From assembly GCA_965116905.1 (NCBI GenBank), contig OZ220732.1, forward strand, positions 2,368,001 through 2,432,000: a DNA stretch of 64,000 nucleotides. Reading direction: 5' to 3'. Position 1 is the first letter of the stretch. Each line of letters begins with the position of its first letter. This document shows, piece by piece, positions 1,648 through 11,508 of the stretch. The notes beneath the pieces were generated by a model. That model had not been told where the DNA came from. It worked only from the letters and a program-made list of their open reading frames with translations, and ran no database searches. The DNA comes from Longimicrobiales bacterium. Lineage in GTDB: Bacteria; Gemmatimonadota; Gemmatimonadetes; Longimicrobiales; Gaopeijiaceae. Made by a program: the position numbers and the translations under genes.

Positions 1648-3190
1648 CACCCCCACGTCCGACGAAGAGTCTTCCACAGCGTCTTCGCGCCCGCGCAACA
1701 GTCCGCAAGGTGGCTCACGTGACACGGCCTACCTCGTCCGCCTGGCCGCCGAGGTCGCCAGCAAGTCGAACCGCACGCGGCGACGCTTCCAGAAACAACT
1801 CGCGCGCAACATCGGCGACGCCCTCCACTCCACCGGCACCACAGCCCGGATCCGCGACCGGTGGAGCCGGCTGTTCATCACCATTCCCGCAACGGGCTCA
1901 CCTGCCGCCGACCAGGCCGTATCCGCCGCCGACCGGGCCATGTCCGCCGCCGCCCGCGTGTTCGGCATCAACTCCTTCTCCCGGCTGGACGCGGTGCTCC
2001 CCGCCGACCTCGACTCCATCGTGCAGGTCGGACACGACACCTACCGGGAGGCCGTCACAGGGCGCCGCTACGCCATCGCGGCACGCCGCACCGGCCGCCA
2101 CCCCTTTTCTTCGCGCGACATCGCGGTTGAACTCGGCGCCGCCCTCAACCCCTACGGCACCGTCGACCTGACCACGCCTGAGGTCACCGTCCACGTCGAA
2201 GTGCGCGACCAGCGCACCTATCTCTTCAGCGGCCGCACCGAGGGTCCGGGCGGCCTCCCGCTTGGCGTGCAGGGCCGGGCGGTGTGCCTCATCTCGGGAG
2301 GGTTCGACTCGGCCGTCGCGGCCTGGCTCCTCCTCAAGCGCGGGGTCGCCCTGGACTACGTCTTCTGCAACCTGGCGGGCCCCGCCTTCGAGCGCTCCGT
2401 GATCCAGGTCACCCGGGTGCTGGCCGACCGCTGGAGCTACGGCGACCGCCCGCGCATGCACGTCGTCGACTTCGGAGAGGCGGTCAGCCGGCTGCAGGCC
2501 GAGGTCACGCCCCGCTACTGGCAGGTCGTGCTCAAGCGGCTCATGTACCGCGCCGCCGAAGGCGTGGCAGCCGAGATCGGCGCGGATGCCCTGGTCACCG
2601 GCGAGTCTCTGGGCCAGGTGTCGTCGCAGACACTCCGCAACCTCCGCTCGATCGAGGCCAGCGCGTCCCTGCCGGTGCTCCGGCCGCTCGTGGGTCTCGA
2701 CAAGGAGGAGATCATCCGCATCGCGAAGCGGATCGGGACCGCCGCTCTCTCCGCACGCGTCAAGGAGTACTGCGCGATTCTGGCGGGGAAGCCGGTCACG
2801 GCCGCGAAGGTGTTGGCGGTGGACCGCGAGGAGGCGCCGCTCGACCCCGGCCTGGTCGACCGCGCCGTGGCCGGGCGCAGGGTGCTGGACGTGCGGAAGC
2901 TCGCCGACTCGGACCTGCAGCGCGACTACCTGTGGCTCGATGTCCTCCCGGACGGAGCCCGCGTGATCGACTGCCGCCCCCCACAGCAGGACGACGGTTG
3001 GCGGCATCCCGGCTCGAAGCGGGTGCTGCCGCCCGACTTCCCCGAACTGGCCACGAAACTAAACAAAGATGTTAAGTATGTACTGTTCTGCGACAACGGA
3101 ATCCAGTCTGGACAGCTCGCAAATATTTTGCAGACAGTGGGTTACGAGGCCTACGCGCTGAAGGACGGGACGAAGGCGCTACGGGGATGA
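1637..3190 (+). CDS. thiI: tRNA 4-thiouridine synthase ThiI (THUMP + PP-loop + C-terminal rhodanese)
   Basis: GPGGLPLG, PP-loop LISGGFDS, TGESLGQVSSQTLRNL, LRPL..LDKEEI, EYC, rhodanese LFCDNG. Confidence 0.9.
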   Translation: MRADTPTSDEESSTASSRPRNSPQGGSRDTAYLVRLAAEVASKSNRTRRRFQKQLARNIGDALHSTGTTARIRDRWSRLFITIPATGSPAADQAVSAADRAMSAAARVFGINSFSRLDAVLPADLDSIVQVGHDTYREAVTGRRYAIAARRTGRHPFSSRDIAVELGAALNPYGTVDLTTPEVTVHVEVRDQRTYLFSGRTEGPGGLPLGVQGRAVCLISGGFDSAVAAWLLLKRGVALDYVFCNLAGPAFERSVIQVTRVLADRWSYGDRPRMHVVDFGEAVSRLQAEVTPRYWQVVLKRLMYRAAEGVAAEIGADALVTGESLGQVSSQTLRNLRSIEASASLPVLRPLVGLDKEEIIRIAKRIGTAALSARVKEYCAILAGKPVTAAKVLAVDREEAPLDPGLVDRAVAGRRVLDVRKLADSDLQRDYLWLDVLPDGARVIDCRPPQQDDGWRHPGSKRVLPPDFPELATKLNKDVKYVLFCDNGIQSGQLANILQTVGYEAYALKDGTKALRG

Positions 3191-4833
3191 TCGATCGTCC
3201 GCCGTCGGACCACCGCGGCGCCGGCCGGCGCAAGGCGGTGCTGACCGCGCTCTCCGTCCTGATCTCCGTGGCTTGCGGCGGCTCCGATGCCGGCTCGACC
3301 GACCCGGGCGACCACCTCGTCATCGCCTGGCCCGCCTCCCGTGAGCCCGCCTCGCTGGACGGCCACATCGAGCCGTACCAGACCGCCTGGCTCATCGACT
3401 ACATGATCGCCGACCCCCTGCTCATCATCGGCCCGGATGGTGAATTCCACCCGGCCCTCGCGACCGCGTGGTCGTCCAACGAAGTGGCGGACGAGTGGAC
3501 CTTCACGCTGCGGAGCGGGGTGGTCTTCCAGGACGGGACGCCCTTCGACGCCGAGGCCGTCCGATACAACGTCGAGCGCATCCTCGACCCCGCCACGCGG
3601 TCCGGCGAGATGGCGGCGCACGTCGGGCCGGTCGAGCGCGTGGAGATCGTCGACGACACCACCGTCACGCTGCACTACGCGGCCCCGTGGGTCACCGTGC
3701 TCGACGCCTTCCGGCGCGTACCCATCTGGTCCCCCACGGCCGCGGAGCGCTGGGGCATCGAGGCGTTCGACCGCCACCTGGTGGGTGCCGGACCCTTCCT
3801 GCTTGAGGAATGGGTGCCCAACGACCGCGTCACCGTGCGGCGCTGGGACGGCTACGGCGGCTGGAACTCGATCGCCGAGGAGCCCGGTCCGGCCAGAGTC
3901 GGGCGCGTCACGATCCGCTTCATCGGCGAGGAAGCCGTGCTGGGCAACGTCGTCCGGACCGGCAACGCCCACATCGCCATGAATCTGCCCACCACGTACA
4001 TCGACGACTACCGCAATGCGGACGGCTTCTCGCTCCTCACCGGCTACCAGGCCGGGACGGGCCTGCAGATGGTCATGAACACGCGGCGCCCGCCCTTTAG
4101 CGACATCCGCGTCCGGCAGGCGCTGCTCCATGGCACGGACCAGCAGGCCCTCAACGATCTCCTGTACGATGGCTACTATCTGACGGCCGACGGCCCCTTG
4201 AACACGGTGCACCGCTGCTACCGGAAGGGGGGCGCGGACGACTACCCGTACGATCCCGAGACGGCCCGGCAGCTCCTGGCAGCAGCCGGCTACAGGGACA
4301 CGGACGGCGACGGCATCCGGGAGGCCCATGGCGTCGCCGGCATCGAAAACGGAACGCCGCTGCGGGTGCGCTGGACGATCCTCGACCGCGAGGAGATGGG
4401 AGAGGCGGTGCAGGCGCAGTGGCGTCCACTCGGGATCGACCTGGTCATCGAGCTCGTTCCCGGACCTGTACAGCTCGAGAGGGTCAACGCCCGCGACTTC
4501 GACCTCATCTACGAGCGCCAGCGCAGCCCGGACCCCCTGCTGATGGACATGCTGTGGAATTCGGCCCACGACGTGGTCGGCGGTTGGGCCTGGACGGGGT
4601 TCGTGGACGCGGAACTGGACGGGATCGTGAGCCGGTTGCGCGTGATTCCGGACCCGGACGCCCGGTGCGAGCTGGCGCGGGACGCCCAGCGGATCATCAT
4701 GGACCACGCACTGATGCTGCCGACGCTGAGCGAACCGATCTTCTACGCGGTGTCAGACGAGGTGCAGGGGTTCCAGCTGGCGTCGGAGGGGCAATTCTAC
4801 TTCCTGCACAACGTGGAGCTGGTGCGGGAGTAG
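3187..4833 (+). CDS. ABC transporter substrate-binding lipoprotein, family 5 (Opp/Dpp-like)
   Basis: Lipobox ISVAC; LATAWS, TFTLRSGVVFQDGTPFDAEAV, GAGPF, PFSDIRVRQAL; ATGA overlap with thiI. Confidence 0.9.
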   Translation: MIDRPPSDHRGAGRRKAVLTALSVLISVACGGSDAGSTDPGDHLVIAWPASREPASLDGHIEPYQTAWLIDYMIADPLLIIGPDGEFHPALATAWSSNEVADEWTFTLRSGVVFQDGTPFDAEAVRYNVERILDPATRSGEMAAHVGPVERVEIVDDTTVTLHYAAPWVTVLDAFRRVPIWSPTAAERWGIEAFDRHLVGAGPFLLEEWVPNDRVTVRRWDGYGGWNSIAEEPGPARVGRVTIRFIGEEAVLGNVVRTGNAHIAMNLPTTYIDDYRNADGFSLLTGYQAGTGLQMVMNTRRPPFSDIRVRQALLHGTDQQALNDLLYDGYYLTADGPLNTVHRCYRKGGADDYPYDPETARQLLAAAGYRDTDGDGIREAHGVAGIENGTPLRVRWTILDREEMGEAVQAQWRPLGIDLVIELVPGPVQLERVNARDFDLIYERQRSPDPLLMDMLWNSAHDVVGGWAWTGFVDAELDGIVSRLRVIPDPDARCELARDAQRIIMDHALMLPTLSEPIFYAVSDEVQGFQLASEGQFYFLHNVELVRE

Positions 4834-10300: not shown

Positions 10301-11508
10301 CCCGGATGGCCTCGGCCCCGTCCTCGGCCTCGTCCCCGGCACCGTCCCCCCGGCTCGCCGCCCGCGCGGTCAGCGTGAAGTCGAGCTTCCGGACCCGGAT
10401 GCTCGAACTGGCCGCCGGGCTGGACGACATCATCGCGCTGGGCCGGGGCGATCCGGACTTCGAGACGCCGGCCGCGATCGTGGCGGCGGGCGCGGACGCC
10501 CTGATTGGCGGCTACACGCACTACACGCCTCCGCCGGGTCTCCGCGAACTCCGCGAAGCGATCGCGTTTCAGCTGAAACTTAACAATAATGTTAAGTATT
10601 CGGCCGATCAGGTCATTGTCACCAACGGCGCCCAGGAAGCGCTGCTGATCTCCATCCTCGCGCTGGTCGATCCCGGCGACGAGGTGATCCTCCAGGCCCC
10701 GCGCTTCAACGCCTTCGACTACATGGTGAAGCTGGCGGGCGGCCGAATCGTGGACGTGCCGACGCTCGAAGAGGACGACTACGCCCTCAGGGCCGACGCC
10801 ATCCGCACGGTGCTCACAAAGTGTTCGAAACTGCTTGTGATCGCGAATCCGAACAATCCCACCGGCGGACTGACCCCGCGGGCGGAACTTGAGCGCATCG
10901 CGAAGCTGGCGGTGGAGCACGACCTCGTGGTCATCTCCGACGAGATCTACGAGAAGCTGATCTTCGGCGGGGCCGAGCACGTGAGCCTCGGTGCCCTCGA
11001 CGGCATGGGCGACCGGACCGTGACCGTGAATGGCTTTTCCAAGGCGTACGCGATGACCGGGTGGCGCGTGGGATACCTGGCCGCGCCCGCCTGGATGATG
11101 GAGTCGGCCGTCGAGATCAAGCACACGCTGAGCATCTGCACGCCTCCCGCCCTGCAGCGCGGCGCCCTCGCGGCCCTGGAGAGCGGCGACGCGGCGGTGG
11201 CCTCCATGCGGGCCGAGTACGAGCGGCGGCTCGCTCTCGTGCTGAACCGCCTCGACGACATGGGCATCTCGTACGGGCGCCCGGGCGGCGGGATGTACGT
11301 CTACGCCAACATCTCGAGCACGGGGCTGGACGCCGAGACCTTCTGCCTCGAACTGCTGCGCCGGGGACAGGTCATGGTCTTCCCCGGCACGATGTTCGCG
11401 GACCCGGCCAACCGGCACATCCGCATCACGCTCCTGTCGCCGTTCGAGTCCATGGAGCAGGCGCTGGAGCGCATGAAACGATTCGTTGAGCAGGTGCGCG
11501 GGGCGTGA
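10297..11508 (+). CDS. PLP-dependent aminotransferase class I/II
   Basis: [58 protein letters not shown]. Confidence 0.92.

Follow-up and report, generated by a model that had tools for sequence, protein, structure and literature searches.

A dispersed 8-4-8 palindrome, probably an ArsR-family operator, at gene ends and inside coding sequences of a Longimicrobiales bacterium

Modules in which an ArsR regulator is encoded together with a COG3832 protein are widespread, and their role is left open in the available text of PMC2701414. In footprints, the regulator Rv2034 of Mycobacterium tuberculosis covers an 8-4-8 palindrome located at its own start (accessible portion of PMC3338718), and its operon partner, Rv2035, is a START protein (accessible portion of PMC13525633). 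ArsR has also been named, along with PurR, CcpA and CodY, as a protein that forms transcription roadblocks (available text of PMC10310618). Here we analyze a stretch of 64,000 nucleotides (the window) from a Longimicrobiales bacterium, in which an AT-rich palindrome, hereafter motif B, lies once in thiI and once in an aminotransferase gene. We find that both sites belong to a motif dispersed over the genome, that both appear to be derived within their genes, and that the protein binding them is very probably a repressor of the ArsR family, whose gene lies 0.9 Mb away together with that of an AHSA1 partner. The window corresponds to G000:C1:2368001-2432000, where G000 denotes the source genome, a single-contig assembly of 4.21 Mb with a GC content of 67.7%. 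For comparison we used 53 genomes of the genus, with relatives labelled G003, G005, G014 and so on.

Two window sites within a genome-wide motif

The initial annotation had noted that two 25-mers, one in each gene, agree at 22 of 25 positions and share a reading frame. Both observations were reproduced: the match is present at the positions given (3055-3079 and 10575-10599), with identity ending at both edges, and the two 25-mers are translated in the same phase. The perfect 8-4-8 inverted repeat ascribed to the aminotransferase copy was likewise confirmed for the core at 10578-10597, ACTTAACA-ATAA-TGTTAAGT, while one position is unpaired in the thiI core at 3058-3077. The thiI copy, placed about 110 bp ahead of the ABC binding-protein gene, lies 108 bp before its start at 3187. 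What changed was the status of the pair. The genome-wide scan that had been proposed revealed the window sites to be just two of 23 copies in G000, with the consensus ATACT(A/T)AACA-N4-TGTT(T/A)AGTAT. Although the 22/25 agreement is real, it is ordinary, since 15 of the 253 possible pairs of these 23 sites (6%) reach at least 22/25.

Sites were counted with a motif B matrix at a threshold of at least 30 bits, using eight block shuffles as background. One more G000 site scored 18 bits, and the shuffle maximum was 14 bits. The geometry is strict: arm pairs with at most two mismatches occur 12 times with a spacer of 4 and never with spacers of 0-3 or 5-11. Weaker sites show no excess over the shuffles, and a tail of decaying copies is absent. 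All five copies within well-supported genes share one coding phase; a sixth, in a doubtful ORF of 54 codons, is in another phase. Motif B sites are real and selected. As to what reads them, we looked for compensatory changes between the arms in 125 distinct 28-mers from G000 and its relatives and found none, pairing being at the level expected from base frequencies. These uncompensated changes make a protein that reads two half-sites likely, rather than a hairpin, and selection on the sites as protein-read half-sites is likely on the same sequence grounds. On the absence of covariation we also rejected an RNA or single-strand hairpin such as a terminator, a REP element or attC. No description of motif B or of its spread was found in the literature searched.

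Alignment of orthologous genes, also proposed at the outset, indicated that the patches in thiI and the aminotransferase are both derived and conserved, with ordinary codons at the same positions in some relatives. The polarity was deduced from those ordinary codons and from the family consensus, on a tree with midpoint rooting only. Among 31 thiI orthologues, 12 carry the site in rare codons, 18 have ordinary codons and one, in G017, retains an eroded site of 13 bits; G017 is without an ArsR orthologue. In three of the 18 site-free cases (G057, G066 and G072) the ABC gene already adjoins thiI, so the site arose after the gene order. In the aminotransferase, 19 of 23 orthologues carry the patched residues or a near form, and the remaining four have ordinary codons, encoding SGKLERDNGLRYP in G057, G066 and G072 and SHKLSRDNDLRYS in G003. 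By hand count, the patch replaced 20 of 39 bases and 10 of 13 residues without an indel. Codon usage in both copies is atypical. Copy 1 uses CTA, AAA, GAT, GTT and TAT, with genome frequencies of 0.01-0.20, and the eight core codons of copy 2 have a mean GC3 of 0.26, compared with 0.89 across the gene.

We next consider where the copies sit, according to gene calls made within this analysis. In G000, six of the 23 sites fall in called genes and the others in tandem (8), convergent (5) or divergent (4) gaps. Convergent gaps thus hold 5 of 17 intergenic sites, compared with 65 of 600 random points, and 53% of the intergenic sites are within 60 bp of a 3' end, compared with 21% of random intergenic points. 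None of five Rex-like boxes, used as a control in G000, was convergent. Of the 70 sites in a further 60 loci from five relatives, 13 are coding and one is unclassified; the 56 classified intergenic sites comprise 27 tandem, 23 convergent and 6 divergent ones (binomial P 3e-7). This value overstates the bias because sites fetched earlier (thiI, the aminotransferase, the arsR promoter and several HNH pairs) are omitted and orthologous sites are included. The sites shared by low-copy genomes look conventional: they lie at the arsR promoter and upstream of a POT transporter gene, or cover the start of moaC or of a yggS-like gene. Overall, neighbors of motif B include genes for the POT transporter, MatE, the yggS-like protein, moaC, peptidases and hydrolases.

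An ArsR-AHSA1 module as the candidate binder

The initial annotation had suggested an operator hidden in coding DNA, with no regulator gene visible in the window. The first part is supported as a reading, and a likely regulator gene was located outside the window (Table 1). In G000, motif B lies about 50 bp upstream of this arsR gene, and the same arrangement was seen in all seven orthologue loci fetched. The association extends to distant homologues: in 47 of their 80 loci, an AAC-N6-GTT dyad is found where the regulator itself starts. Three of these distant operators score 40-44 bits on the motif B matrix, and the same arm there encodes MVKY. Copy numbers outside the genus are low: four tested genomes from outside Longimicrobiales that encode such homologues have one or two matches each, and none of 350 genomes of the order outside the genus has more than two exact matches.

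Within the genus, 19 genomes have 9-33 copies and three others 4-5. The ArsR orthologue is present in 21 of these 22 genomes with at least four sites and in 0 of the 31 others. The exception, G013, is an assembly of 190 contigs with multi-copy sites and no match to the whole 5.5-kb arsR neighborhood. In G003 both flanking genes are kept, arsR and its operator are lacking, and no site was found. A second ArsR-AHSA1 paralogue (G000:2519417) was also considered as binder and rejected, as it has a single operator of its own and its distribution is too patchy.

Table 1. Coordinates of the sites and genes discussed (window positions unless a genome label is given)
Feature	Position	Strand	Remarks
thiI (THUMP, ThiI and rhodanese domains)	1637..3190	+	Start uncertain; hosts motif B copy 1
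Motif B copy 1	3054..3081	.	Core ACTAAACA-AAGA-TGTTAAGT at 3058-3077; rhodanese-coding 3' end of thiI; 39.4 bits; likely ArsR operator, judged from sequence
ABC family-5 solute-binding protein	3187..4833	+	PF00496; start overlaps thiI stop; first likely target of copy 1
Two ABC permeases, 468-aa protein without assignment, amidohydrolase	5867..10300	+	Between the two sites
Class I/II aminotransferase	10297..11508	+	PF00155; start uncertain, alternative 10399; hosts motif B copy 2
Motif A, GTTTCAGCTGAAAC	10566..10579	.	Overlaps motif B copy 2; 19 exact copies in G000
Motif B copy 2	10574..10601	.	Core at 10578-10597; inside aminotransferase gene; 44.2 bits
Gfo/Idh/MocA oxidoreductase and ABC ATPase	11505..14242	+	Downstream of the composite site
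Motif A, second window copy	13546..13559	.	Encodes AFQLKR in the ABC ATPase gene; arose within a sub-clade out of a near match
ArsR-family repressor gene	G000:1476399-1476731		NF033788, 71.6 bits (cut-off 55)
AHSA1 (START-fold) gene	Directly after arsR		PF08327, E 1e-35

Motif A, DUF222-HNH elements and other features

Copy 2 of motif B is overlapped by a second palindrome, motif A. The initial annotation was right about the overlap but gave the shared letters as AAAC; motif A in fact shares AC with the core and GAAAC with the 25-mer. Its description of 10561-10599 as a composite of two motifs was borne out, as the same overlap register recurs at G000:3701275 and at the ends of HNH elements in G053 and G048. 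The intergenic composite at G000:3701275 is also the closest match to the aminotransferase segment, with 24 of 25 positions and 11 flanking bases. Such composites could form by deletion at the GAAAC/GATAC microhomology, and it is possible that the aminotransferase segment was patched in a single step from a composite donor elsewhere in the genome.

The likeness of motif A to parS turned out to be a mere resemblance. The expectation for parS is a place near the origin and parAB and a CACGTG center, and motif A, which is dispersed, does not fit it. The two true sites, GTTCCACGTGGAAC at G000:873974 and 874018, stand beside parA/parB near dnaA. In four single-contig genomes, the 500 kb on either side of dif contain no exact copy of motif A. 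A LacI-family protein was rejected as its binder, there being no PF00356 match in G000. Motif A is present in 39 of the 53 genomes, and the 14 without it also lack the DUF222-HNH family described below (at E<=1e-60); the single-contig genome G009 has six copies and no HNH match.

DUF222-HNH elements (PF02720 and PF01844) are multicopy and have a GAAC-N7-GAAC promoter box, which we take to resemble a LexA site. Both copies in G000 have motif B at each end and motif A inside, where it encodes VSAET, and homology ends at the downstream motif B. All six copies fetched from G014 are also flanked by motif B on both sides, and at G000:2247545 a B-A-B remnant persists within HNH-derived sequence. At an empty HNH locus, G005 and G067 have no motif B and G021 has a single motif B with a decayed motif A. 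Motif B is missing from six loci of G000 that match G014 insertions or the sequence flanking them, and HNH copies free of it occur in G010, G057, G072 and, once, in G005. Given the copies in G010, G057 and G072, motif B is cargo that is not needed for movement. Many intergenic copies of motif B were likely carried by these elements, which left single B or B-A-B remnants. When an element is located at a gene end, the host gene takes its last codons and its stop from motif B (...DTKQ*, ...DTKH*, ...ILNSNV*; loci L298, L300, L307, L029 and L032).

Other dispersed dyads were observed as well. A third one (dyad C), TGTAAA-N6-TTTACA, has 29 copies in G000 with at most one mismatch, some in tandem at 20-21 bp and five between convergent genes; the window has one at about 61605-61622. 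Near G000:978955, a short gene that presumably encodes an XRE-like regulator is preceded by a related site. TGTGA-N6-TCACA boxes occur at G000:2159930 and at 11 other places, mostly in the form TTGTGAA-N4-TTCACAA, which we take to be Rex operators; one of them overlaps the start of a rex-looking gene.

Several further features of the window and genome were noted. A weaker patch of AT-rich codons in the aminotransferase gene (window 10815-10860; ACA AAG TGT TCG AAA, LTKCSK) is found in some relatives and missing in others, irrespective of motif B. The gap between the binding-protein and permease genes (4833-5867) is an insertion hot spot, holding a carbonic anhydrase gene in G000, an HNH element in G057 and G072 and about 23 kb in G067. 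Upstream of thiI (157-1647) lies a type IV toxin-antitoxin pair, AbiEi/AbiEii, that has a dyad of its own (157-194). Its toxin gene in G000 is apparently broken by an internal stop and a lost segment, and fuller versions precede thiI in G072, G003 and G067. An AT-rich direct repeat, ATACATAAAATACATAAAATGCGTAAAATACGTAAA, occupies 56543-56591. Seven related tyrosine-integrase genes, one of them truncated, are scattered in G000 (L048-L052, L054, L057), several adjoining mobilization-like genes. The sequencing runs that contain the window stretch are mostly sponge metagenomes.

Possible role of the sites and comparison with known systems

We favor the reading in which motif B sites are operators of an expanded ArsR-repressor regulon that acts partly as a transcription roadblock. 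Sequence evidence makes this reasonably probable as a whole, and for the roadblock role taken by itself we regard the case as evenly balanced. The operator of an autorepressor would at first have reached a small number of promoters, with a later expansion in one clade to many gene ends and positions within coding sequence. Copies 1 and 2 would have been rewritten into codons of thiI and the aminotransferase gene, and the bound repressor would throttle transcription into and through the ABC operon. Copy 1 might block read-through from thiI or cover an internal promoter roughly 110 bp before the binding-protein gene. Copy 2, together with the binder of motif A, might act as a partial roadblock in mid-operon; we infer that the oxidoreductase and ABC ATPase genes downstream of the composite are likely affected. 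Copies at the ends of genes and HNH elements would serve as protein-dependent terminators or insulators, and a ligand, perhaps sensed via the AHSA1 protein, would release the repressor. A bolder and rather doubtful version holds that a single-operon ArsR-AHSA1 stress module took on the function of a ligand-switchable protein terminator and insulator across the genome, its operator being placed on both ends of an HNH element that seeded it at gene ends, becoming fused with dyad A and being written into enzyme genes at a cost of up to 10 of 13 residues. This version is coupled to the idea, tentative to the same degree, that dyads A and C spread as motif B did, which would point to a lineage-wide process of operator multiplication.

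A number of observations weigh against the regulon reading or its assignment to this ArsR protein. A full block within the gene that carries the site would be costly, so that any effect must be partial or conditional. No sigma-70 promoter was detected near copy 1; the promoter scan gave one site against 0.8 expected. No single pathway is clear among the neighboring genes, a list assessed without an enrichment control, and the site over the yggS start is missing in five multi-copy genomes examined. The recognition helix reads ISLVAVSRH here, but the homologues whose operators are closest have MSLPGFMKH. Co-occurrence in related genomes does not count as independent evidence. The aminotransferase itself is found in all 22 multi-copy genomes and in G003, so another clade-specific protein could also be the binder. 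Finally, in G057, G066 and G072 the repressor is accompanied by 4-5 sites only and by neither of the window sites.

Might the repressor bind these sites in the service of chromosome architecture or cell-division control instead of transcription? The TetR-family proteins SlmA and RefZ have been co-opted for such roles. The copy number of motif B resembles that of SlmA- and RefZ-type systems, its sites occupy genes and convergent gaps irrespective of promoters, and few of the site clusters come closer to dif than 500 kb (1 of 14 in G000, 0 of 11 in G001, 2 of 19 in G014). That depletion, however, is both weak (P 0.12, 0.046 and 0.19) and non-specific: the unrelated 29-copy dyad leaves a gap too, from -500 to +484 kb, and the 2.6-3.4 Mb region is poor in paralogue-rich genes (7-12% versus 9-31% elsewhere). 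Moreover, the protein is missing from 32 of the 53 genomes, and the composites have no consistent orientation to the fork. We consider an architectural role improbable. The case for nucleoid occlusion of the SlmA or Noc kind was weakened by the same two controls, and only one ParB domain is encoded in G000; fork-trap polarity failed on the orientation of the composites. An account without regulatory benefit, which we judge unlikely, combines scatter by HNH elements, short-patch conversion of codons that already come close to the motif, and retention through a bias dependent on the protein (protection or drive). It would accommodate the six doubly flanked G014 copies, the HNH-derived flanks of B-A-B remnants, the recurrence of the composite register at three kinds of locus and an aminotransferase patch of 20 changes in 39 bases on one branch with no intermediate among 23 orthologues. 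Spacers nevertheless stay locus-specific, which speaks against ongoing homogenization, the tail of decaying copies is absent, few changes separate the motif A of the ATPase gene from the near match that gave rise to it, and no comparable drive mechanism was found in the literature searched.

Three more specific proposals go back, in outline, to the initial annotation. A tyrosine-recombinase core (7-6-7, or else 11-6-11), mediating cassette exchange or excision between the window sites, has some appeal: the 28-bp geometry fits dif-type sites, ACTTAAC/GTTAAGT fits the integron core RYYYAAC/GTTRRRY, one end of the HNH element coincides exactly with motif B, which can provide a host stop codon, and G021 has a single motif B at its HNH-free locus. 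We nonetheless found it unsupported and regard it as very unlikely. Partner spacers differ, both in the window (AAGA and ATAA) and at HNH ends, and remain locus-specific; the empty sites of two close relatives, G005 and G067, have no motif B, and HNH copies move without it. In addition, each of 24 relatives has a full-length thiI, and B-to-B joints are absent from the 13 joints listed at one HNH locus, in contigs only, which drop rare variants. For the A-to-B joints at this locus, whose shorter side spans 21-25 letters, the remnant at G000:2247545 is the best explanation. The sequence of motif B is independently explained as an ArsR operator. PF00589 has 12 matches in G000. The identification of motif B as dif or pdif was dismissed since the true dif, of other sequence, lies at about 2929970-2930000, at the GC-skew maximum; an integron or Tn916-like core was rejected on spacers, empty alleles and B-free HNH copies. 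Looping between an operator and an auxiliary operator across the 7.5-kb ABC segment would suit two strong sites that, in many relatives, stand on either side of the operon's first half. Their spacing, however, ranges from 6.5 kb in G046 through 7.5 kb in G000 and 9.7 kb in G059 to 28.8 kb in G067, 21 other copies of motif B exist, and ArsR proteins are usually dimers; looping is thus unsupported and, in our estimate, highly improbable. As for copying of the aminotransferase segment from the neighboring thiI and ATPase genes, the 22/25 identity, the common frame and the shared GAAAC edge first suggested it, but copying from thiI is not needed because the identity and frame follow from the consensus. 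The closest match is G000:3701275 and not thiI, 6% of site pairs are equally similar, and the ATPase motif A is younger than the composite, being absent in G046 and G068, which have the composite. The order of appearance thus largely refutes such an origin, which we hold to be extremely unlikely.

Returning to the expanded ArsR regulon, the distribution of sites would show it caught in the course of building, with one copy in other phyla, 4-5 in three genus members, 9-33 in 19 genomes, and absent or eroded sites where the repressor gene is lacking. A defined 28-bp site with many targets makes the ArsR-AHSA1 module testable. The derived patches would represent selection at the DNA level overriding protein sequence, while the 3'-end bias suggests the repressor as a terminator or insulator and the mobile HNH element as a carrier of operators. 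Should binding hold and transcription be unaffected, the sites would hint at a less familiar role. The operator family itself is known; new here are the scale, the 3'-end bias, the rewriting of proteins and the carriage on mobile elements.

These features set the locus apart from each of the closest known systems. Like parS, SlmA and Noc sites and matS, motif B forms tens of palindromes that are partly coding and shape protein sequence. Unlike them, it belongs to an ArsR operator family, its avoidance of the terminus is common to unrelated motifs, and the genome has one ParB only, with true parS and dif as separate sequences. The DUF222-HNH elements resemble REP13E12-like ones in domain content, multiple copies and promoter box; many copies in this clade differ in having motif B at both ends and motif A in the gene, an arrangement for which no description was found in the literature searched. 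In the roadblocks of PurR at purB, CcpA at sigL, CodY and ArsR (PMC10310618, in its available text), a repressor site likewise lies downstream of a promoter or inside a gene. Here, in contrast, the sites are genome-wide, enriched between convergent genes and associated with the replacement of many amino acids, and the roadblock is predicted from sequence. The closest resemblance is to Rv2034-Rv2035 and the ArsR-COG3832 modules (accessible portions of PMC3338718 and PMC2701414), which share the order of an ArsR helix-turn-helix gene followed by an AHSA1 gene, the 8-4-8 palindrome at the regulator's start and, in homologues, a matching operator arm. The difference is one of number and place: those homologues have one or two copies per genome, compared with 9-33 here, many of them at 3' ends, within genes and on mobile elements.

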